From NCBI GenBank assembly GCA_027337125.1, contig GCA_027337125.1_3057.1: a stretch of DNA of 64,000 bases. One strand, written 5' to 3'. This DNA is from a phage. This document shows positions 1 to 46,600 of this stretch, one piece after another. A model generated the notes under the pieces. That model was not told the DNA's origin. It saw only the letters and a program-made list of their open reading frames with translations, and ran no database searches. Each line of letters starts with the position of its first letter. Within the stretch, counting starts at the first letter, position 1. Position numbers and translations under genes: made by a program.

Positions 1-2613
1 CGTGAAGTAGAATATCTTCCGACTATGTTTAGGCATTGTAAGGAAGAGTCAAAATACAAAGACATCTATGGTAAAAACTGTGCTCCTCAAAAATTTCCAT
101 CAATGAAAGATGCTCGAGATTGGATGAAGCGAATGGAAGACATCGGTCTCGAAGCTCTCGGTATGAACGATTTTAAACTCGCTTATATCAGTGATACATA
201 TGGTTCAGAAATTGTTTATGACCGAAAATTTGTTCGTGTAGCTAACTGTGACATTGAGGTTACTGGTGATAAATTTCCTGACCCAATGAAAGCAGAATAT
301 GAAATTGATGCTATCACTCATTATGATTCAATTGACGATCGTTTTTATGTTTTCGACCTTTTGAATTCAATGTATGGTTCAGTATCAAAATGGGATGCAA
401 AGTTAGCTGCTAAGCTTGACTGTGAAGGTGGTGATGAAGTTCCTCAAGAAATTCTTGACCGAGTAATTTATATGCCATTTGATAATGAGCGTGATATGCT
501 CATGGAATATATCAATCTCTGGGAACAGAAACGACCTGCTATTTTTACTGGTTGGAATATTGAGGGATTTGACGTTCCGTATATCATGAATCGCGTTAAA
601 ATGGTTCTCGGTGAACGTAGTATGAAACGTTTCTCTCCAATCGGTCGAGTAAAATCTAAACTAATTCAAAATGTGTACGGTAGCAAAGAAATTTATTCTA
701 TTGATGGCGTATCTATTCTTGATTATTTAGATTTGTATAAGAAATTCGCATTTACTAATTTACCGTCATTCTCTTTGGAATCAGTTGCTCAACATGAAAC
801 CAAAAAAGGTAAATTACCGTACGACGGTCCTATTAATAAACTTCGTGAGACTAATCATCAACGATACATTAGTTATAACATCATTGACGTAGAATCAGTT
901 CAAGCAATTGATAAAATTCGTGGGTTTATCGATCTAGTTTTAAGTATGTCTTATTATGCTAAAATGCCTTTTTCTGGTGTAATGAGTCCTATTAAAACTT
1001 GGGATGCTATTATTTTTAACTCGTTGAAAGGTGAACATAAGGTTATTCCTCAACAAGGTTCGCACGTTAAACAGAGTTTTCCGGGTGCATTTGTGTTTGA
1101 ACCTAAACCAATTGCTCGTCGATATATTATGAGTTTTGACTTGACGTCTCTGTATCCGAGTATTATTCGTCAGGTTAACATTAGTCCTGAGACTATTCGT
1201 GGGCAGTTTAAAGTTCATCCAATTCATGAATATATTGCAGGAACAGCTCCTAAACCGAGTGATGAATATTCTTGTTCTCCGAATGGATGGATGTATGATA
1301 AGCATCAAGAAGGTATCATTCCAAAGGAAATCGCTAAAGTATTTTTCCAGCGTAAAGACTGGAAAAAGAAAATGTTCGCTGAAGAAATGAATGCCGAAGC
1401 TATTAAAAAGATTATTATGAAAGGCGCAGGGTCTTGTTCAACTAAACCTGAAGTTGAACGATATGTTAAGTTCAGTGATGATTTCTTAAATGAACTATCG
1501 AATTACACCGAATCCGTTCTCAATAGTCTGATTGAAGAATGTGAAAAAGCAGCTACACTTGCTAACACAAATCAACTTAACCGTAAAATTCTTATTAACA
1601 GTCTTTATGGTGCTCTTGGTAATATTCATTTCCGTTACTATGATTTGCGAAATGCTACTGCTATCACAATTTTCGGCCAAGTCGGTATTCAGTGGATTGC
1701 TCGTAAAATTAATGAATATCTGAATAAAGTATGCGGAACTAATGGTGAAGATTTCATCGCAGCAGGTGATACTGATTCGGTATATGTTTGCGTAGATAAA
1801 GTTATTGAAAAAGTTGGTCTTGACCGATTCAAAGAGCAGAACGATTTAGTTGAATTCATGAATCAGTTCGGTAAGAAAAAGATGGAACCTATGATTGATG
1901 TTGCATATCGTGAGTTATGTGATTATATGAATAACCGCGAGCATCTGATGCATATGGACCGTGAAGCTATTTCTTGCCCTCCACTTGGTTCAAAGGGCGT
2001 AGGTGGATTTTGGAAAGCGAAAAAGCGTTATGCTCTGAACGTTTATGATATGGAAGATAAGCGATTTGCTGAACCGCATCTAAAAATCATGGGTATGGAA
2101 ACTCAGCAGAGTTCAACACCAAAAGCAGTGCAAGAAGCTCTCGAAGAAAGTATTCGTCGTATTCTTCAGGAAGGTGAAGAGTCTGTCCAAGAATACTACA
2201 AGAACTTCGAGAAAGAATATCGTCAACTTGACTATAAAGTTATTGCTGAAGTAAAAACTGCGAACGATATAGCGAAATATGATGATAAAGGTTGGCCAGG
2301 ATTTAAATGCCCGTTCCATATTCGCGGTGTGCTAACTTATCGTCGAGCTGTTAGTGGTCTAGGTGTAGCTCCAATTTTGGATGGAAATAAGGTAATGGTT
2401 CTTCCATTACGTGAAGGAAATCCATTTGGTGATAAGTGCATTGCTTGGCCATCGGGTACAGAACTTCCAAAAGAAATTCGTTCTGATGTGCTATCTTGGA
2501 TTGACCACTCAACTTTGTTCCAAAAATCGTTTGTTAAACCGCTTGCAGGTATGTGTGAATCGGCTGGCATGGACTATGAAGAAAAAGCTTCGTTAGACTT
2601 CCTGTTTGGCTGA
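1..2613 (+). CDS. 43: DNA polymerase gp43 (family B), 5'-truncated at window edge (frame open from nt 1)
   Basis: Long ORF whose translation matches T-even gp43 throughout; motifs SLYPS and GDTDS present; stop TGA 2611-2613. Confidence 0.95.
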   Translation, partial: REVEYLPTMFRHCKEESKYKDIYGKNCAPQKFPSMKDARDWMKRMEDIGLEALGMNDFKLAYISDTYGSEIVYDRKFVRVANCDIEVTGDKFPDPMKAEYEIDAITHYDSIDDRFYVFDLLNSMYGSVSKWDAKLAAKLDCEGGDEVPQEILDRVIYMPFDNERDMLMEYINLWEQKRPAIFTGWNIEGFDVPYIMNRVKMVLGERSMKRFSPIGRVKSKLIQNVYGSKEIYSIDGVSILDYLDLYKKFAFTNLPSFSLESVAQHETKKGKLPYDGPINKLRETNHQRYISYNIIDVESVQAIDKIRGFIDLVLSMSYYAKMPFSGVMSPIKTWDAIIFNSLKGEHKVIPQQGSHVKQSFPGAFVFEPKPIARRYIMSFDLTSLYPSIIRQVNISPETIRGQFKVHPIHEYIAGTAPKPSDEYSCSPNGWMYDKHQEGIIPKEIAKVFFQRKDWKKKMFAEEMNAEAIKKIIMKGAGSCSTKPEVERYVKFSDDFLNELSNYTESVLNSLIEECEKAATLANTNQLNRKILINSLYGALGNIHFRYYDLRNATAITIFGQVGIQWIARKINEYLNKVCGTNGEDFIAAGDTDSVYVCVDKVIEKVGLDRFKEQNDLVEFMNQFGKKKMEPMIDVAYRELCDYMNNREHLMHMDREAISCPPLGSKGVGGFWKAKKRYALNVYDMEDKRFAEPHLKIMGMETQQSSTPKAVQEALEESIRRILQEGEESVQEYYKNFEKEYRQLDYKVIAEVKTANDIAKYDDKGWPGFKCPFHIRGVLTYRRAVSGLGVAPILDGNKVMVLPLREGNPFGDKCIAWPSGTELPKEIRSDVLSWIDHSTLFQKSFVKPLAGMCESAGMDYEEKASLDFLFG

Positions 2614-26136: not shown

Positions 26137-28314
26137 ATGATTATCACCACTGAAAAAGAAACAATTCTTGGTAATGGTGCTAAATCAAAAGCATTTAGCA
26201 TCGCAGCAAATCCTAAAGTATTTAAAATTCTGTCATCTGATTTGTATACAAACAAGATTCGCGCAGTGGTTCGTGAATTGATTACCAACATGATTGATGC
26301 CCATGCTCTTAATGGAAATCCTGAAAAATTTATCATTCAAGTCCCAGGACGATTAGATCCGCGATTTGTTTGCCGAGATTTTGGTCCAGGTATGAGCGAT
26401 TTTGATATTCAGGGTGATGATAATTCTCCTGGGTTGTATAATTCATACTTCAGTTCATCTAAGGCTGAATCTAACGATTTCATTGGTGGATTTGGTTTAG
26501 GTTCTAAATCTCCGTTTAGTTATACTGATACGTTTAGTATTACTTCGTATCATAAAGGTGAAATTCGTGGTTATGTAGCTTACATGGATGGTGATGGTCC
26601 GCAGATTAAACCTACATTCGTAAAAGAAATGGGTCCAGATGATAAAACTGGTATTGAAATCGTAGTTCCAGTTGAAGAAAAAGACTTTAGAAACTTTGCT
26701 TATGAAGTTTCTTATATCATGCGACCATTCAAAGATTTGGCTATCATTAATGGTCTTGACCGCGAAATTGATTATTTTCCGGATTTTGATGACTATTACG
26801 GTGTAAATCCAGAAAGATACTGGCCAGATCGTGGTGGATTGTACGCTATCTATGGTGGTATTGTTTATCCTATTGACGGTGTTATTAGAGACCGTAACTG
26901 GTTAAGCATTCGCAATGAAGTGAATTATATTAAGTTTCCAATGGGTTCACTTGATATTGCTCCATCGCGTGAGGCTCTTTCGCTGGATGATCGTACTCGT
27001 AAAAATATTATTGAGCGTGTTAAAGAGCTCAGTGAGCGGGCGTTTAATGAAGATGTAAAACGATTTAAAGAATCTACATCTCCTCGTCATACATACCGTG
27101 AATTGATGAAGATGGGGTATTCTGCTCGAGATTATATGATTAGTAATTCAGTCAAATTCACGACTAAAAATCTGTCATATAAGAAGATGCAGAGCATGTT
27201 TGAACCTGACAGTAAGTTATGCAATGCAGGAGTTGTGTATGAAGTAAATCTTGACCCTCGACTGAAACGCATTAAACAAAGTCATGAAACTTCAGCCGTT
27301 GCATCAAGTTATCGTCTGTTTGGTATTAATACGACAAAAATTAATATTGTTATTGATAATATTAAAAATCGTGTTAATATTGTCCGTGGATTAGCACGTG
27401 CATTAGATGATAGCGAATTTAATAACACTTTGAATATTCATCACAATGAACGCCTTTTGTTTATTAATCCGGAAGTAGAATCGCAGATTGATTTGCTTCC
27501 TGATATTATGGCAATGTTTGAAAGTGATGAAGTTAACATTCATTATCTGTCAGAAATTGAAGCTTTAGTTAAAAGTTATATTCCAAAGGCAGTAAAAAGT
27601 ACAGCTCCTCGTCCTAAAACTGCTACTGCATTTAAGTTTGAAATTAAAGACGGGCGCTGGGAAAAAGAGGAATTGTTTACGCTCACATCAGAAGCAGATG
27701 AAATTACTGGTTATGTAGCATACATGCATCGTTCTGATATTTTCTCTATGGATGGTACTACATCGCTTTGTCATCCATCTACGAGTATTTTGACTCGTAT
27801 GGCTAATCTTATTGGCATTAATGAATTTTATGTTATTCGTCCGCTTTTGCAGAAAAAGGTAAAAGAACTTGGTCAGTGCCAATGTATTTTTGAAACTCTA
27901 CGTGATTTATATGTAGATGCTTTTGATGATGTAGATTATGATAAGTATGTAGGTTATTCAAGTTCAGCTAAACGATATATTGATAAAATTATCAAGTATC
28001 CTGAGTTAGATTTTATGATGAAGTACTTCAGTGCAGATGAAGTTTCTGAAGAATATACACGACTCGCTAATATGGTTAGTTCATTGCAGGGTGTATATTT
28101 TAATGGTGGAAAAGATACCATCGGTCATGACATCTGGACAGTAACTAATCTTTTTGATGTATTATCAAATAATGCTTCAAAAAACAGTGATAAAATGGTT
28201 GCTGAGTTTACCAAGAAATTCCGTATTGTTTCTGACTTCATCGGATATCGTAACTCTTTGAGTGATGATGAAGTTTCCCAAATCGCTAAAACTATGAAGG
28301 CCCTTGCGGCCTAA
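26137..28314 (+). CDS. rIIA: rIIA protein (membrane-associated, GHKL-like ATPase fold)
   Basis: 725 aa; N-terminus [14 protein letters not shown] matches T4 rIIA. Confidence 0.93.
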
Positions 28315-28325
28315 TAAGGAAAATT

Positions 28326-29264
28326 ATGTACAATATTAAATGCCTGACCAAAAACGAACAAGCTGAAATTGTTAAACTGTATTCAAGCGGTAATTATACC
28401 CAACAGGAATTGGCTGATTGGCAAGGTGTATCGGTTGACACAATCCGTCGTGTTTTGAAAAATGCTGAAGAAGCTGAGCGCTCCAAAGTTGCCATTAGCG
28501 GTGACATTACAGTTGAAGTTAAGAGCGATGTAGCTATTGCTCCAGTTGCTAAATCTGACATTATTTGGAATGCATCTAAAAAATTCATTTCAATTACTGT
28601 TGACGGCGTAACTTATAACGCAACTCCTAATACTCATTCAAACTTCCAGGAAATTCTTAACCTGCTTGTTGCAGATAAATTGGAAGAAGCGGCACAAAAA
28701 ATTAATGTTCGTCGCGCTGTTGAAAAATATATTTCCGGTGATGTTCGAATTGAAGGTGGAAGCCTGTTCTATCAAAATATTGAATTGCGGTCTGGTTTAG
28801 TTGATCGTATTCTTGATTCGATGGAAAAAGGTGAAAACTTTGAATTTTATTTTCCGTTCTTGGAAAATCTGCTGGAAAACCCAAGCCAAAAAGCAGTATC
28901 TCGACTCTTTGATTTCTTGGTAGCAAACGATATTGAAATTACAGAAGACGGCTACTTCTATGCTTGGAAAGTAGTTCGCAGCAATTACTTTGACTGTCAC
29001 TCAAATACCTTTGATAACAGTCCTGGTAAAGTAGTTAAAATGCCACGTACTCGTGTGAATGACGATGATACACAAACTTGTTCTCGTGGTCTGCATGTGT
29101 GTTCTAAATCTTATATTCGTCACTTTGGCAGTTCAACCAGCCGAGTTGTAAAAGTTAAAGTACATCCTCGCGATGTAGTATCAATTCCGATTGATTACAA
29201 TGATGCTAAAATGCGTACCTGCCAATACGAAGTAGTTGAAGACGTTACTGAACAATTTAAATAA
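28326..29264 (+). CDS. rIIB: rIIB protein
   Basis: 312 aa; matches T4 rIIB. Confidence 0.93.
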   Translation: MYNIKCLTKNEQAEIVKLYSSGNYTQQELADWQGVSVDTIRRVLKNAEEAERSKVAISGDITVEVKSDVAIAPVAKSDIIWNASKKFISITVDGVTYNATPNTHSNFQEILNLLVADKLEEAAQKINVRRAVEKYISGDVRIEGGSLFYQNIELRSGLVDRILDSMEKGENFEFYFPFLENLLENPSQKAVSRLFDFLVANDIEITEDGYFYAWKVVRSNYFDCHSNTFDNSPGKVVKMPRTRVNDDDTQTCSRGLHVCSKSYIRHFGSSTSRVVKVKVHPRDVVSIPIDYNDAKMRTCQYEVVEDVTEQFK

Positions 29265-29278
29265 GGGCTTCGGCCCTT
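29252..29278 (+). repeat. 27-bp direct repeat, left copy (covers rIIB stop and UUCG hairpin AAGGGC-UUCG-GCCCUU)
   Basis: ACAATTTAAATAAGGGCTTCGGCCCTT identical to 29475-29501. Confidence 0.85.
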
Positions 29279-29292
29279 AACTAAGGAAAATT

Positions 29293-29487
29293 ATGTTAGG
29301 TTATCAAGCACGAGTAAAAGAAGAATACGAACAATTAATGCTCAAAATTAATGCACTGAGCAAATTTTTAGAAAGTGAAAAGTTTTCAACGGTTAATGCA
29401 GTTGAGCAAGAACTGCTGCTTTCACAGTTTATCTCAATGAAATCTTACGCAGATTGTTTAGAGAAAAGAATTGCACAATTTAAATAA
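29293..29487 (+). CDS. Hypothetical coiled-coil protein (64 aa) flanked by 27-bp direct repeats
   Basis: AAGGA RBS; ends with the same QFK-stop as rIIB. Confidence 0.55.
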   Translation: MLGYQARVKEEYEQLMLKINALSKFLESEKFSTVNAVEQELLLSQFISMKSYADCLEKRIAQFK

Positions 29488-29501
29488 GGGCTTCGGCCCT
29501 T
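29475..29501 (+). repeat. 27-bp direct repeat, right copy
   Basis: Identical to 29252-29278. Confidence 0.85.
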
Positions 29502-29507
29502 TTGTTT
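29486..29507 (+). terminator. UUCG hairpin plus U-rich tract (terminator-like)
   Basis: AAGGGC-UUCG-GCCCUU followed by TTGTTTT. Confidence 0.55.
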
Positions 29508-29518
29508 TAAGGAAAATT

Positions 29519-29848
29519 ATGATTTATTGTATGAATATCGGTGATTCCGACATAAAAGAAATTTCTCTACACGGTAATCATCACGCTAATATTGTGTACT
29601 GTAATAAATTTGAGTTTGGTCATGAAAAACTTGGAGTTCTTTACTGCAATGATGTTATAGTCATGGATAAAAAGAATCTCGATGAACTTGATCGTAATTC
29701 TTTAGATGAAAATGATCGAATTTATTATGGTACTCTTAAAGTATATAACGCTTATCTTAGTGGTAAAAAGGAAAGTCTAAATGCAGAAAACGAATCCAGG
29801 TTTACAAAGACTATTTCAGATTCCGACATTTACCCTATCGAACAATGA
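29519..29848 (+). CDS. Hypothetical protein (109 aa; His/Cys-containing N-terminus)
   Basis: ATG 29519 with AAGGA RBS. Confidence 0.5.
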   Translation: MIYCMNIGDSDIKEISLHGNHHANIVYCNKFEFGHEKLGVLYCNDVIVMDKKNLDELDRNSLDENDRIYYGTLKVYNAYLSGKKESLNAENESRFTKTISDSDIYPIEQ

Positions 29849-30338
29849 CTTGACTAGTGAAATGAAGGTCAAAATTGCTGATACAGCAAGATACTCTTTA
29901 AAACAAAATCCTAATCAGGATAAAGCAGAAGTTATCGAAAGATGCCGTATTGCGGTGTACGCAGAGTTTTTTGTAGCAGATTGGCTAAGCGGATATGTTA
30001 ACAAAGGACAAGAGGATGTTAATGACCCGTATACATATGCATGGGATGTACTGGCGCATCCAAAATACTGCGGGCTTCGTGTAGAAGTCAAAACACATCA
30101 AACTGACTCACGTTGGATTTCGGTAACAACCGGATGCAGCGGAGAGTATCCATACGGTTCTGGAATAAATCTAGGGCCCATTCTGAATCACCAAGTCGCT
30201 GACTGTATAATTATATTCAACACTAAAGAAATTCATCCAGGTGTCATCAAGTACACTCCGAAGTTCATCGGTGATAGAGAAGACCTTCGTAAAGTTGTAA
30301 GAAAAAGCAACTACAACGGATGGTATCTTTCCATTTAA
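29781..30338 (+). CDS. denB: Endonuclease IV (DenB), 185 aa; start uncertain (overlaps upstream ORF by 68 nt)
   Basis: Size and position (rIIB to ndd) as T4 denB; AAAGGA RBS 8 nt upstream. Confidence 0.55.
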   Translation: MQKTNPGLQRLFQIPTFTLSNNDLTSEMKVKIADTARYSLKQNPNQDKAEVIERCRIAVYAEFFVADWLSGYVNKGQEDVNDPYTYAWDVLAHPKYCGLRVEVKTHQTDSRWISVTTGCSGEYPYGSGINLGPILNHQVADCIIIFNTKEIHPGVIKYTPKFIGDREDLRKVVRKSNYNGWYLSI

Positions 30339-30354
30339 AAATTTTCACAAAACG

Positions 30355-30385
30355 GTTTACAAACCACAAGGACTGTGGTACTATA
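30355..30385 (+). promoter_or_regulatory. Early promoter cassette (GTTTAC 30355-30360, -10 TACTAT 30380-30385)
   Basis: Near-identical to cassettes at 2711, 34138, 51432. Confidence 0.6.
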
Positions 30386-30412
30386 CAACTATCAACTGCG
30401 GAGGAGCGGAAA

Positions 30413-30676
30413 ATGAAATTTAAATTTTATTATGCTAAACATAAAATAACTGATGAGTTTGTGTCAGTTGAATATTCTAGCGATGATGAAGGTATGATTT
30501 ATACTCGCTTAGGATTATCGCATTGGGAATCTGATCAGCCTTATTTTTCAACTCCTGAAGAAATTACACGCTTAGTTAATGGTCATATGAATGACCACTG
30601 GAATGTAATTCTTTCAGATAGTCTTAAAGCGGCTATTAATAGTAATGAAATGAAAATCGCTGAGATTGAACTATGA
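30413..30676 (+). CDS. Hypothetical protein (87 aa)
   Basis: GGAGGAG RBS; ATG 30413. Confidence 0.55.
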   Translation: MKFKFYYAKHKITDEFVSVEYSSDDEGMIYTRLGLSHWESDQPYFSTPEEITRLVNGHMNDHWNVILSDSLKAAINSNEMKIAEIEL

Positions 30677-33955: not shown

Positions 33956-34101
33956 GTCCATTCATTGGTATTACAAGCGCGGCGTTAGTATCCGGTAGCA
34001 TTTTACTGGCGGGTTTAGGCGTTGTTCCAGCCGTAGCAGGAGGTCTTCTTGCGTTCGGAATTCAACGTGTTATCATGACAGTTATCACAGTCATGCAGTA
34101 A
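33952..34101 (+). CDS. Small membrane peptide (49 aa), not in ORF track
   Basis: ATGA overlap with gene 52 stop; glycine/alanine-rich TM segment. Confidence 0.4.
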   Translation: MSPFIGITSAALVSGSILLAGLGVVPAVAGGLLAFGIQRVIMTVITVMQ

Positions 34102-43647: not shown

Positions 43648-46600
43648 TTATTCAACCCATTCAAATTTAACCGTTTTATTCACTGGGTCAGGAATAATGC
43701 GAACATTACCAATTCGTAAGAAATCACGAATAGTAAGATTCCCCATTATAGCATTATCAGATGGTAAAGCACCGATATCAGACGGCTGAGGAGGGTTACC
43801 CCCATCAAATACCTGAACAAAACTTGACCAAGAGTTTTTGGTTTTCTGCCATGTGCGCGTCCAGCGAGTGGTGCGCGCTTCTGGGGTCGTTGGATAAGTA
43901 ATCCAATCTTGATAAAGCGAATCGAGTGTGTTACCAAACTGAGTCAATGTACCAGGAGATTTAACTTCTTCGCCACGTTCTAAGTATGGAAGTCCAGTCA
44001 CTTCATTAGTCTTTTCAACCATCTTAAAATAACCCGGGAACTGGTTATAAGTGGCTGAATCATTAATATCGATTGACCAGAATCCTACAGTATCAGATGT
44101 TGGCGCACGAGTATATAAATCAGAGGTTTTAGTGCCTTGAGAACGAATTCTCGAGTTGACAGTTAAACCACCTGAAGTTATAGTAGCACCTTTGGCAATG
44201 ATTAAGCTTTCACCAATTGTAACCTGACCAGATTGATTATTAATTGATAATGGACGTAATCCATTAAATCCACCAGTCTGATCACCAGATGCAGTAAGCA
44301 TAAAATAGGTGTTAGCAGCATCATTACGAATAAAGAATCCATAATCACCGTTTATTGCTCTAAAAGCATTCGACGATTTACTGATAAATTCGCCATTAGC
44401 AGTAACTGAACTACCGAATGTTGCAACGCCGTTCGCGTTCAAAGAACCTAAAGCATTCACATTTATTGGCATTACAGTACCATTAATGCTAAATGCTATA
44501 TTACCATCCGTATCGCGTTGAGAATAAAAGTGATAAGATGTTTCATCACTAACTTCAAATACGGTAGAACGTGTTGTGTTTGATTCCCCGCTAAATTGAT
44601 TCCCCCACACGCTGACTGTCATCGTTTGAGCCGGGTTCGTTCCAGTTTGAGGTCCTTTCTCAAAAATCAGACGAGTTGCTGTTCCATCAGTATTAGAAAT
44701 GGTTAGTGTACTATTTGCTGAAACTGATCCACCAAACGTAGCAGTACTAGATGATACAAGAGGGGCACCCAGATTCGTTTGTTGGGTTAAGGTTAGTGAA
44801 CCATTAACCGTTTGTGCAATATCCCTACGAATGAACTGAGATGAATTTAGACCATCCAGTAAATTACTATCTACGGCTTTTGCTTTTAACGGCAAATAAT
44901 TTGCTAATACACGGTTTAATTCATATGGCGATACTGCATAGCTATTTTTCTCGTATAATTCTAATGACTGGGTTGAACCAACTGTATCATTACCAACGAA
45001 TGTAATTGAACCAGATGAAGTTTTAACAAAACCTCTTACCAGGGTAGTAGCTGCCCAAGTAGGTTCACTCTGTACAATCCATTTTAAATTTTTTGGAGAT
45101 ACAGCAGTGTTCGCTGACGTTCCAGTCACAGTTTCAGACTGGGTTGCAACTTTAATAACACCTTCTTGTGCTTCGGTAGATTTAGTACCTAAAAGCTTTT
45201 TAGGAGTTATTAAAACATTATCTAATATTCCTGCAGCAGCTTCAACTTGTGTAGCTACACGAAGTGTACCACGTTGTGTCTCATTTGCTTCAAGAATATT
45301 AAGGGTATAATGGTCCCAGAGAGTTCCTGATTCAACTAATCCAGATAGAGCAACAACAGAAGTACGATCAGTACTATTAAATCTGGTTTTAATTTTTAAT
45401 GGTGTAGAGATACGAGTATCATCGACGCCTGCGTCGAATTCAACTTGTGTAGCAATTTCAGCTATACCACTTAAACTTTCAGTTGCTCTACGGTCATTTA
45501 AAGTTTTAGGAGTGACTGCACGAGTATAATCAGTTCCTGTATTAACTTCACTTTGCGTAGCAATTTCAATTAAACCAATTCTTGCATCAGTTGATGTCTT
45601 TTTATGTAACGTTTCTGGTGTTACAACCGCATTTGCCCATCCTTCTTGGCTTTGTCCAGCAATTACTTCACTTTCAACTGCTAAAATTACTGCACCTTGT
45701 TGTGTTGGAGTAGCTTTATACTGATCCAAAGCTTTAGGCGAAACAACTAAATTATTAGTGTTTTTATTATAAACGTTTGTACCATTTAATTCACGACTAG
45801 AAGCTGGAGTAGCTCCTGCGGTAGATACAAAGGTTACAATACCAGATAATGATTCAGAACCCTGACGAGCTTGAAGCTTTTTAGGAGTGATGATTGTAGT
45901 ATCATCAGTACCTGCATTAGTTTCTTGCTGCGTAGCAATTTCAGCGACACCTCTACGAGTTTCTGTAGCAGTTCTTTCATTCAGCTTTTTAGGGGTGATG
46001 ATAAGGTCATCAGCAAAAGAGAATGTGGTGTTCTGATTCACTTGAGCAGTTGTTGCTATTCTTGCAATACCTCTACGAGTTTCTGTAGCAGTACGATTAG
46101 CTAACGTTTCTGGAGTAATTGCCAATTCTTTTTGCGGAGAATTTTCTAAATCGGCATTAGCTTGAGCTTGTGTAGCTAAAGCAATTACGCCTAATCTCGC
46201 TCTAGTAGAATCATTTAAAGAATCAACTCTTTCTACAGTTGGAACGTTTTGCTGTACAACCCAGTATTTTCCATCAGAATCTTCTATATAAGCAAGCTCT
46301 AAAACTGGAACATAATTAGTTTCACCGTTAAAAACTAATTCTTGAACTGTAACCCACTCAGCTTCAGGCGGATATTCTGAGCGTTTTGGGAATTGCAGCA
46401 ATTGAACTGAAGAAGCAATTTTATCTTCATCAGCAGCTTTGATTTTAACTGTTTGTCCTTTTCTCATGTAATTCATGGAAATTTTAACAGTATCGCCAAT
46501 GGAAATATCGGTCGGAAGCTGAAGTTCAATTGTTTGAGTTGTTCCATTATTCGCACCAAATACCATAACTTCTTCGTTTGGACGAATATTAGAATTAGTT

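Follow-up and report, generated by a model that had tools for sequence, protein, structure and literature searches.

The small gene denB.1, which lies between rIIB and denB in the window analysed here (the whole stretch of DNA, 64 kb long), is a conserved resident gene and not a mobile cassette. The 3' end of rIIB and the 3' end of denB.1 carry two copies of one gene-boundary module, and our preferred reading, to which we assign a probability of roughly 0.55, is that this duplicated module sits on a resident denB.1 and that the two ends were made identical by short-tract gene conversion. The perfect 27-nt repeat now found at the two ends is a derived and recent minority allele.

The repeat, ACAATTTAAATAAGGGCTTCGGCCCTT, has exactly two exact matches in the window when searched as a pattern (Table 1), so that the perfect direct repeat described in an earlier reading of the same DNA, made from the sequence alone, is confirmed at both of its positions and is present nowhere else. 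No further match is found in the 64 kb when up to three mismatches are allowed, and there are 0 matches in 100 shuffles, the chance expectation being 0. If one mismatch is accepted the repeat grows to 30 nt (29249-29278 and 29472-29501), with a spacing of 223 nt. The 27 bases comprise the last three codons, the TAA stop and a UUCG hairpin at the ends of rIIB and denB.1, adjoining early genes in this T4-like phage (Tequatrovirus). The proteins end in ...VTEQFK* (rIIB) and ...RIAQFK* (denB.1); the translations of the ORFs and the folding both agree with the earlier statement that QFK-stop, followed by the same hairpin, is common to the two. Beyond the repeat there is a second shared block, a 14-nt Shine-Dalgarno/start module TAAGGAAAATTATG, which follows after a gap of 3 nt in copy 1 and 6 nt in copy 2. 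The intergenic spaces are 28 nt and 31 nt long.

The 64-aa ORF is denB.1 of T4, which is already annotated, and is no novel cassette. Its product matches Pfam family PF21825 with 70.6 bits, well above the gathering threshold of 24.8, residues 4-61 corresponding to profile positions 3-60/61. The QFK tail encoded by the repeat (residues 62-64) is therefore outside the Pfam domain. The closest match in the phage collection over the interval is BP32, at 96.9%.

Table 1. Features of the rIIB-to-denB interval, in coordinates of the window.
Feature	Position	Strand	Basis and remarks
rIIB CDS, 312 aa	28326..29264	+	ORF list; phrog_609 RIIB lysis inhibitor, E 5e-111; alignment to annotated T4 rIIB
Repeat copy 1	29252..29278	+	Last 3 rIIB codons, TAA, GGGC-UUCG-GCCC hairpin; exact match
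Hairpin 1, UAAGGGC-UUCG-GCCCUUA, 7 bp	29262..29279	+	Folding, -10.9 kcal/mol; ACUAAGG next, no U-tract
denB.1 Shine-Dalgarno/start module TAAGGAAAATTATG	29282..29295	+	Exact match; same as 28315-28328 (rIIB) and 29508-29521 (DUF7418 ORF)
denB.1 CDS, 64 aa, crAss001_48-related family	29293..29487	+	Pfam PF21825, E 9.9e-20; phrog_774; annotated denB.1 in T4, RB14, IME08
Repeat copy 2	29475..29501	+	Last 3 denB.1 codons, TAA, hairpin; spacer-free 'T' allele, the minority form; exact match, allele counts
Hairpin 2 and U-tract, AAGGGC-UUCG-GCCCUU then UUGUUUUA	29486..29509	+	Hairpin 29486-29501 folds at -9.3 kcal/mol; flagged terminator-like on + strand
DUF7418 ORF, 109 aa, RB32ORF268c-like	29519..29848	+	Pfam PF24193, E 3e-36
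denB (endonuclease IV), end of interval	29781..30338	+	ORF list; annotation of homologous positions in T4, RB14

The sequence-only reading took the repeats as the footprint expected if recombination in a terminator module had brought in the bracketed ORF and left the module duplicated on either side, as a cassette that could be excised again. One part of this holds: the two gene ends carry a single module in two copies, and some recombination or copying event must therefore have made them alike. The distribution of the gene does not fit the remainder. The 3' end of rIIB is found at 90% identity or more in 498 Tequatrovirus records, compared with 496 records containing denB.1 DNA and 497 containing the DenB.1 protein (tblastn, at least 80% identity). 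The exceptions, one or two records with the rIIB 3' end and no match to denB.1, may be incomplete entries or laboratory strains carrying deletions. A comparison of relatives for presence or absence of the ORF had been proposed, with its presence in all of them to count against the insertion; within the genus almost all do carry it. Moreover, the order rIIB, denB.1, DUF7418, denB is kept in six further genera, most of them lacking matching flanks. In Dhaka-, Kanagawa-, Marfa- and Moonvirus denB.1 has the same position with a hairpin on one side only, and in Winklervirus it lies between two unrelated hairpins. The gene is therefore older than the repeat and was not inserted together with it, and the insertion part of the cassette proposal is largely refuted.

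The architecture that such a cassette would predict before insertion or after excision does exist. In RB69 and in all Mosigvirus (153/153 records) rIIB is followed by one UUCG hairpin with a U-tract and then by the DUF7418 ORF, with no denB.1, which is the ORF-less, single-hairpin state that had been anticipated. However, in the rIIB tree Mosigvirus is nested among genera that carry denB.1, and the absence is therefore most parsimoniously a loss. The loss could have occurred from ATG to ATG with no need for two hairpins: Marfavirus shares the GGGGAC hairpin with Mosigvirus and lacks a second one.

Repeated stem-loop cassettes of T4-type phages have been shown experimentally to recombine with excision of a mini-circle (PMC2839356), and it had been suggested that denB.1 could be lost again by recombination between the repeats. 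The junction predicted for this deletion was not found in the phage collection (about 498 Tequatrovirus rIIB 3' ends). Neither was it found in IMG/VR, where only 8 rIIB loci make a weak denominator, nor in metagenomes, where the denominator is similarly weak, with the intact copy-1 junction in only 8 contigs. Renewed loss is thus not borne out by any genome or contig of these collections, and together with the presence of denB.1 in nearly every Tequatrovirus record and at the same position elsewhere, this makes an excisable cassette a very unlikely origin for the locus.

Indel polymorphism had also been expected between rIIB and denB. It is indeed present, but it affects the DUF7418 ORF and not denB.1. 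About 231 records have the DUF7418 ORF intact; in T4, T2 and others it has an internal deletion. A class of matches with 75% coverage at first sight suggested that T4 and T2 lack the 64-aa ORF; this was rejected, as annotation and alignment show that the missing piece is in the DUF7418 ORF. Deletions between short direct repeats or microhomologies are well known from the classical genetics of the T4 rII region, and those seen here are of a similar kind: T4 and T2 have an in-frame internal deletion at TAAAAG, and Kha5h and Shfl2 have lost 22 nt between TGATT repeats, the microhomologies measuring 4-6 nt and the endpoints lying inside the ORF. They differ from what the 27-nt repeat would produce: no observed deletion uses this repeat, and none within the genus removes denB.1.

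The identity of the two copies is best considered through the natural alleles of copy 2. In most relatives the repeat is imperfect, with 10-21 nt of exact identity, and copy 2 has TTC and an A/T spacer of 3-6 nt; in T4 only 10 nt are common to both copies. A spacer-free allele occurs in about 30 of the 496 records. The alleles can be arranged as a series, starting from the majority form (GCA..TTC with a spacer), through PhiZZ30 (no spacer), to the window, EPIMAM01 and ZCEC15 (no spacer, TTT), and finally Sf23 (no spacer, TTT, GAA), which has a perfect 30-nt repeat. Each change in the series, namely loss of the spacer, TTT and GAA, is towards copy 1. In addition, SHFML-type copy 2 is the same as RB14-type copy 1 over 30 nt. 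The loci tabulated for this comparison (18 plus 8) were picked partly by allele and so do not form an unbiased sample. Spacer-free alleles are found on at least four denB.1 haplotypes, and the nearest neighbours of each have spacers; EPIMAM01, for example, differs from RB14 at 2/170 nt in the body of the gene and then has four changes in the last ~25 nt. Because the spacer-free alleles form a series approaching copy 1 on several denB.1 backgrounds, the pattern suggests short-tract ectopic gene conversion, with copy 1 as donor and copy 2 as recipient.

The same end point might have been reached by coincidental convergence, in which the hairpins are kept by selection, slippage removed AATAA, the C-to-T change was independent, and allelic recombination spread the resulting identity. 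The spacer, an A/T-rich tandem AAATAAAATAA, measures 0, 3, 4, 5 or 6 nt depending on the relative, and could have been lost by simple replication slippage. The TTT/TTC difference is a synonymous transition for which copy 1 varies too, 26 records having C there, and other substitutions in the tail are not towards copy 1 (ATC in Kha5h, GCG in RB14, AAG in T4). Tequatrovirus genomes are mosaic, and an allele of single origin could have spread to several backgrounds by ordinary allelic recombination between phages. It should be added that in the majority state the homology usable for conversion is only 19-21 nt. The homology used in T4 recombination is reportedly '<50 bp' (Singer et al., 1982, as cited in PMC2839356), and 19-21 nt would be at the low end of the range given in that citation. 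Against convergence, the tails differ at two sites, and at each of them the copy-1 state is found among the copy-2 alleles; although the sites are only 9 nt apart, all four combinations are present. One of the changes, GCA to GAA, is non-synonymous, and is found in both Sf23 and SHFML-26. Furthermore, the changes directed towards copy 1 are almost confined to spacer-free alleles: the T state is found in 14-17 spacer-free records, compared with 1 record that has the common AATAA spacer. We regard convergence as a possible but unlikely explanation, and continue to prefer short-tract conversion.

Both copies form a hairpin in which a UUCG loop is closed by a C:G pair on a Watson-Crick stem, as seen in the sequence and by folding. 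In copy 2 the hairpin AAGGGCTTCGGCCCTT is followed by a U-tract, TTGTTTTAAG (also given as UUUUGUUUU), giving it the GC-rich hairpin and U-tract of a rho-independent terminator. Copy 1 differs, since the sequence TTAACTAAGG has two U residues only before AACUAAGG, and it was not flagged on the + strand. Only copy 2 has a U-tract, and therefore only copy 2 looks like an intrinsic terminator, one that closes the rIIB-denB.1 pair; judged by its sequence, copy 1 is an intercistronic hairpin and no canonical terminator. The earlier description of the repeat as a terminator module is thus apt for copy 2 and not for copy 1. In several relatives the copy-2 hairpin is annotated as terminator or stem_loop (among them Kha5h and T4 record X75802). 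A review of T4 transcription does not mention rIIB terminators, and no Rfam family matched positions 28000-30500 at E values up to 1. On the opposite strand both hairpins are terminator-like.

The window contains eight C(UUCG)G hairpins with stems of at least 6 bp. The stem sequence is common only to the two discussed here, and the remaining six stable CUUCGG hairpins all have different stems; the identity is therefore more than the reuse of a generic motif. Hairpins with C(UUCG)G tetraloops were reportedly described in T4 mRNAs by Tuerk et al. in 1988. They resemble the window pair in their C:G-closed UUCG loop, high stability and position at gene boundaries, but are individually distinct, whereas the window pair shares the stem and 13 nt of upstream coding sequence. 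These T4 hairpins are summarised in PMC4371310.

Five other genera have a hairpin at the rIIB-end position with compensating changes in the stem, and stems vary from genus to genus (GGGC, GGAGGC, GGGGC, GGGGAC, GGAGAC, AGCCC). Across genera 6/7 pairs change on both sides, with 92.9% of cells paired and a covariation score of 0.714, compared with 0.283 for shuffles; 0/500 shuffles reached this value. The hairpin is thus under structural selection. On the Moonvirus loci alone the rIIB-side hairpin could be taken as the derived copy; this was rejected, as Dhaka-, Kanagawa-, Marfa-, Winkler- and Mosigvirus all have a UUCG hairpin after rIIB.

The start module TAAGGAAAATTATG occurs exactly three times in the 64 kb, where 0.11 matches are expected, at the starts of rIIB, denB.1 and the DUF7418 ORF. 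The translational operator bound by RegA is A/U-rich and unstructured, with a 5' poly(A) tract and AUG (PMC3014915). The denB.1 start AAAAUUAUGUUA matches the rIIB operator AAAAUUAUGUAC at 10/12 positions, and the DUF7418 start holds AAAUUAUGAUU, the same as the gene 44 sequence quoted in PMC3014915, both being likenesses at the level of sequence only.

These features could be accommodated if the shared ~30 nt were recognised specifically, by an RNA-binding protein or a nuclease, for instance, or by a factor acting at the DNA level, and if such a site were needed behind both genes, with the identity itself under selection. The core AATAAGGGCTTCGGCCCTT is kept at both positions across the genus, the adjoining start modules are likewise identical to each other and similar to RegA operators (PMC3014915), and the terminator-like character on the opposite strand is common to both hairpins. 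Yet natural variants break the identity with no apparent consequence, the T4 copies having just 10 nt in common, and the copy-1 loop is UUUG or UUG in some phages. Other genera have different stems or lack one hairpin, UUCG tetraloops have been described as not being sites of protein or RNA interaction (PMC4371310), and there is no Rfam match. We consider a recognition site highly improbable.

It is useful to compare the module with the mobile regulatory cassettes known in T4-type phages as PeSLs, or promoter-early stem-loops (Arbiol et al., 2010, PMC2839356; Comeau et al., 2014, PMC4122927). Recombination between PeSLs has been proposed, and shown by inverse PCR, and a published PeSL exchange at ndd.4/.5, between T4 and PST, is just downstream of the rIIB-denB.1 locus (PMC2839356). 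The likeness is that of a short repeated intergenic module, with a G/C stem-loop on the 5' side (here 29262-29279 and 29486-29501) followed by a Shine-Dalgarno sequence and start codon (here TAAGGAAAATTATG at 29282-29295 and 29508-29521), flanking small early ORFs. However, in a PeSL the stem-loop is separated from the Shine-Dalgarno sequence by a sigma-70-type early promoter (-35, ~17 nt, -10), whereas in the window this gap is only 2-6 nt, and no promoter-like sites were found in 29265-29292 or 29488-29518 on the + strand. Membership of the PeSL group was rejected, as there is no room for a promoter. PeSLs also flank ORFs that vary between close relatives, whereas denB.1 does not vary in this way within the genus, and their definition has no counterpart to the part of the repeat that reaches into coding sequence (the QFK codons). 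A wider proposal, which is speculative and unlikely, is that the stop-hairpin-Shine-Dalgarno junction is a promoter-less counterpart of the PeSL, a 'junction cassette' copied ectopically between T-even gene boundaries, where it would install terminators or insulators and rewrite upstream C-termini (QFK in DenB.1, EQFK in Sf23); the ancestor of Mosigvirus would likewise have lost denB.1 through recombination between such junctions.

For the preferred reading, of a duplicated module made identical by short-tract conversion, the following history may be envisaged. The module consists of the final three or four codons of a gene, TAA, a C(UUCG)G hairpin, a short gap and a Shine-Dalgarno/AUG block. 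In the ancestor of the genus the module at the end of rIIB may have been copied onto the end of denB.1, giving DenB.1 its QFK tail. We infer this direction because Tequatrovirus and Dhakavirus both have TEQF... at the end of rIIB, while DenB.1 outside Tequatrovirus ends RIxRF*, RISYFGE* or RISNFDF*. Later, in minority lineages that include the window phage, a conversion tract of at most ~30 nt would have removed the 3-6 nt spacer and turned TTC into TTT, producing the perfect 27-mer. At the RNA level the hairpins would function as 3'-end or boundary elements. Copy 2, with its U-tract, may be an intrinsic terminator or a 3'-end stabiliser behind denB.1, while copy 1, with no U-tract, would be read through and could function as an intercistronic stability or insulator hairpin.

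The appearance of an insertion footprint is thus misleading: an ORF bracketed by a perfect repeat is here an old resident gene, and it is the perfect repeat that is recent and in the minority. The locus is an ordinary one with a modest micro-evolutionary twist, its gene ends having probably been made identical by local recombination, and it has no evident bearing on any long-standing open question. It does provide a natural allele series in which regulatory hairpin modules of ~20-30 nt, 223 nt apart, appear to swap sequence and in doing so alter the C-terminus of a protein. If confirmed, this would extend the PeSL idea, that repeated regulatory motifs are recombination substrates in T4-type phages, to promoter-less terminator/Shine-Dalgarno junctions, and would offer a simple system in which to measure the minimum homology for T4 recombination.

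The 27-bp direct repeat reported to bracket a 64-residue ORF in the window is genuine. The sequence ACAATTTAAATAAGGGCTTCGGCCCTT occurs at exactly two sites, and its occurrence in two copies is far beyond chance: no further site is found in the whole window with up to three mismatches allowed, and 100 shuffles gave 0 matches to the 27-mer. The repeat extends to 30 nt if one mismatch is allowed, and the copies are spaced 223 nt. Both proteins do end in QFK-stop, rIIB with VTEQFK* and the 64-aa ORF with RIAQFK*. Either copy holds a GGGC-UUCG-GCCC hairpin, with folding energies of -10.9 kcal/mol in copy 1, at the 3' end of rIIB, and -9.3 kcal/mol in copy 2, at the 3' end of the ORF. Eight C(UUCG)G hairpins with a stem of at least 6 bp are present in the window, mostly at gene ends, and only the copy 1/copy 2 pair shares a stem.

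A common 14-nt block containing the Shine-Dalgarno sequence and ATG, TAAGGAAAATTATG, resumes 3 nt past copy 1 and 6 nt past copy 2, so the entire stop-to-start junction is reused, beyond the hairpin alone. This start module has exactly three sites in the 64 kb (0.11 expected), at the starts of the consecutive genes rIIB, denB.1 and the DUF7418 ORF. Just 5' of the first module, a weaker GGCC-CUUGC-GGCC hairpin overlaps the rIIA end (...KALAA*), so that a hairpin-plus-SD layout is found at all three junctions of the rIIA-rIIB-denB.1-DUF7418 run.

The segment belongs to Tequatrovirus (T4-like): when 29100-29900 is compared by megablast, 510 phage records match, almost all of them with identities of 90-99%. 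The 64-aa ORF is T4 denB.1, and aligns to the annotated denB.1 of T4, RB14, Kha5h, RB27 and Shfl2. Both Pfam PF21825 (crAss001_48-related) and phrog_774 include its product at full length; it scores 70.6 bits in the former, where the cut-off is 24.8. The PF21825 domain takes in residues 4-61 and does not reach the repeat-derived QFK tail at residues 62-64. The 109-aa ORF that follows is DUF7418/phrog_2237, known as RB32ORF268c. denB.1 and both hairpins are already known, annotated features of T4-like phages; no Rfam family was found at the locus.

Features of the rIIB-denB interval, of related repeats in the window and of relatives' loci
Feature	Position	Strand	Basis or remark
rIIA	26137-28314	+	ORF list
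rIIB	28326-29264	+	ORF list
denB.1, 64 aa	29293-29487	+	ORF list
DUF7418 ORF, 109 aa	29519-29848	+	ORF list
denB	29781-30338	+	ORF list
Repeat, copy 1	29252-29278		exact match
Repeat, copy 2	29475-29501		exact match
Hairpins of copy 1 and copy 2	29262-29279, 29486-29501		
Hairpin at rIIA end	28298-28312		
Start modules (rIIB; denB.1; DUF7418)	28315-28328; 29282-29295; 29508-29521		exact matches
C(UUCG)G hairpins	6720, 13370, 23980, 29262, 29486, 32137	+	stem at least 6 bp
C(UUCG)G hairpins	38443, 42496	-	stem at least 6 bp
Early-promoter-like repeats	2713, 22153, 30337, 30843, 34140, 51435, 52164		~66 nt each
Five 68-nt direct repeats	45143-46119		imperfect
Mutated copy-1 loops in relatives	L006 3440-3455; L010 950-965; L014 (LH2) 875-890		
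RB69 rIIB-DUF7418 junction	L027 (NC_004928) 1270-1320		

The sequence-only reading took the repeat as the footprint of a cassette, inserted or duplicated by recombination in the terminator module and able to be lost again through the repeats. This finds no support in Tequatrovirus, where denB.1 is essentially universal. The rIIB 3' end (29050-29251, at least 90% identity) is present in 498 records and the unique part of denB.1 (29293-29474) in 496, full length in all; the protein is found in 497 at 80% identity or more. A synthetic deletion product (rIIB end, one repeat and the sequence 3' of copy 2) matched 498 records, and the best 25 of the 498 all align as two pieces spanning 335-341 nt, so denB.1 still sits between them. 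No sequenced repeat-mediated deletion variant is thus found. A search of 241 million metagenome records and of IMG/VR for the exact deletion junction was likewise negative, a result limited by how poor these collections are in Tequatrovirus contigs (just 8 carry the intact copy-1 junction).

The true presence/absence polymorphism of the interval is the DUF7418 ORF: of ~498 Tequatrovirus records, about 231 have it intact. At first sight the megablast coverage classes of 100%, 75% and 70% seem to sort the records by whether they carry denB.1, but what they reflect is the DUF7418 ORF. In T4 and T2 an in-frame internal deletion, with TAAAAG microhomology at its junction, leaves an unannotated 37-aa remnant, MIYMNIGDSDIKESLNAENESWVTETISDSDIYPIEQ; in Kha5h and Shfl2 the ORF is shorter by another 22 nt, lost between TGATT repeats.

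DenB.1 homologues (45-56% identity) lie directly 3' of rIIB in five further genera, in the order rIIB, denB.1, DUF7418, denB. These are Dhakavirus (IME08, IME540), Kanagawavirus (PEi20), Marfavirus (PhiKpNIH-6), Winklervirus (CHI14) and Moonvirus (Merlin, Moon and CF1, loci L011-L013). In the first three, the UUCG hairpin after rIIB has the stem GGAGGC, GGGGC and GGGGAC respectively, and denB.1 is followed by no hairpin, its stop codon overlapping or adjoining the next start. Winklervirus has GGAGAC-UUCG 3' of rIIB and an unrelated GGCC-UGAA-GGCC hairpin 3' of denB.1. In Moonvirus, rIIB and denB.1 are joined by a TAATG overlap, and the sole terminator, AGCCC-UUCG-GGGCU, is 3' of denB.1. Among the genera compared, only Tequatrovirus has identical sequence at both gene ends. 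Since the others carry denB.1 without matching ends, denB.1 is older than the repeat, which excludes its insertion together with a duplicated target.

In the cross-genus hairpin alignment, 92.9% of cells are paired, with compensatory changes in six of the seven stem pairs and a covariation score of 0.714 (0.283 for shuffles, and reached by 0 of 500), so the hairpin is under selection as a structure. Some Tequatroviruses keep the copy-1 stem but have a mutated loop (UUUG in two phages from IMG/VR, UUG in LH2), so the exact tetraloop is not an absolute requirement in copy 1.

The state that the sequence-only reading would predict, with one copy and no ORF, does exist in RB69-like phages, but as a fixed difference between genera. 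In RB69, rIIB (...TELFAE) is followed by TAATAA, a single GGGGAC-UUCG-GUCCCC hairpin that has a U-tract, then an SD and a DUF7418 homologue. denB.1 is missing, as it is from the whole genus Mosigvirus, all 153 records of which (RB69 and 152 others) match this junction as one unbroken stretch. In a neighbour-joining tree built on the 270 C-terminal residues of rIIB, RB69 falls beside Dhakavirus, in a clade that also holds Tequatrovirus and Kanagawavirus; these three genera all bear denB.1, so the most parsimonious reading is that Mosigvirus lost the gene. The loss need not have used two hairpins, as Marfavirus has the identical GGGGAC hairpin on the rIIB side alone.

Within Tequatrovirus, perfect identity of the two copies is a derived minority state. 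The usual copy 2 consists of ATTGCACAATTCAAATAA, an A/T spacer of 3-6 nt and GGGCTTCGGCCC, and its longest exact match to copy 1 covers 10 nt in T4 and at most 21 nt in other spacer-bearing phages. Spacer-free forms are a minority, with TTT (the window type) in 14-17 records and TTC in 13. Copy 1 reads CTGAACAATTTAAATAAGGGC, and the spacer-free alleles form a graded series towards it: spacer loss alone (PhiZZ30, EC.W14-2); spacer loss with TTC to TTT, giving the perfect 27-mer (the window, EPIMAM01, ZCEC15); and spacer loss with TTT and GCA to GAA, giving a perfect 30-mer (Sf23, whose DenB.1 ends EQFK like rIIB). GAA with TTC, in SHFML-11/26 and two others, gives 30-nt identity to a C-variant of copy 1 that 26 other records carry, for example RB14.

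We consider local gene conversion the best explanation for the perfect identity, with a probability a little above one half. Short ectopic tracts of up to about 30 nt, possibly recurrent, would have passed from copy 1 to copy 2 and ended inside the hairpin, preserving the copy-2 U-tract. Spacer-free alleles occur on at least four distinct denB.1 haplotypes, the nearest neighbours of each being spacer-bearing. Over 170 positions of the denB.1 gene body, for example, EPIMAM01 and RB14 have 2 differences; four changes then follow within the last ~25 nt, and every one of them makes copy 2 of EPIMAM01 equal to that phage's own copy 1. All four combinations are present at two sites 9 nt apart; the copy-1-like T accompanies the common AATAA spacer in just one record, and is found in none of the 17 spacer-bearing loci read. 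The chief rival account has slippage acting on the hypervariable A/T spacer and point changes arising independently, with ordinary recombination spreading the result; it is a real possibility, as the alleles compared are a small sample and were in part picked by allele.

An older event may account for the resemblance itself. rIIB ends TEQF... in Tequatrovirus and Dhakavirus alike, and DenB.1 ends RIAQFK* in Tequatrovirus only (RIxRF*, RISYFGE* or RISNFDF* elsewhere). In the three genera where no hairpin lies behind denB.1, this gene and DUF7418 overlap directly; at the same place Tequatrovirus has a near-copy of the whole rIIB/denB.1 junction, from Gln codon to ATG. Most simply, the Tequatrovirus ancestor would have copied its rIIB-end junction to the denB.1 end, so that denB.1 acquired a terminator and three new C-terminal residues, and DUF7418 a start region of the rIIB type.

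A U-tract, UUUUGUUUU, comes directly after copy 2, the only copy flagged as terminator-like on the coding strand and one that relatives annotate as a terminator or stem-loop. Copy 1 is followed by UUAACUAAGG and has no such flag. On this basis we propose different roles: copy 2 would terminate or stabilise the 3' end of transcripts that span rIIB and denB.1, and copy 1 would be read through, serving between the two cistrons as a hairpin for stability or insulation. The original paper on such hairpins in T4 mRNAs is reportedly that of Tuerk et al. in 1988. It was in T4 mRNAs that hairpins of this type were first noticed (PMC4371310). Both hairpins are also terminator-like on the - strand, because the preceding AAATAA is a T-rich tail there, and they could block antisense transcription; no convergent gene lies nearby.

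The three start modules resemble or overlap sequences repressed by RegA, AAAAUUAUGUAC of rIIB and AAAUUAUGAUU of gene 44 (PMC3014915). This suggests that rIIB, denB.1 and DUF7418 may be co-regulated, and denB.1 and DUF7418 may thus be RegA targets.

The closest known concept is the promoter-early stem-loop (PeSL), a cassette made up of a stem-loop, an early promoter and an SD/ATG; in T4-type phages, recombination of PeSLs excises or exchanges small ORFs (PMC2839356, PMC4122927). True PeSL-like early-promoter repeats are found nearby, for example at 30337-30402, immediately 3' of denB. The seven early-promoter-like repeats (...TTTCACAAAACGGTTTACAA...GGTACTATACAACTATCAACT) are preceded at 34099 and 51394 by G-rich stem-loops and there have the look of a PeSL. 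The five 68-nt repeats, spaced 108-375 nt and with 60-71% identity to the reference copy, may be a repeated domain inside an opposite-strand gene. The junction module resembles a PeSL in its stem-loop, its SD/ATG and an apparent propensity for sequence exchange; however, its intergenic spaces are just 28 and 31 nt, so it lacks the defining promoter, and the gene that it flanks, denB.1, is not variable in Tequatrovirus. It is somewhat PeSL-like as a recombination substrate, yet is no PeSL. The junction pair joins a known class, that of repeated regulatory stem-loop junctions that recombine.
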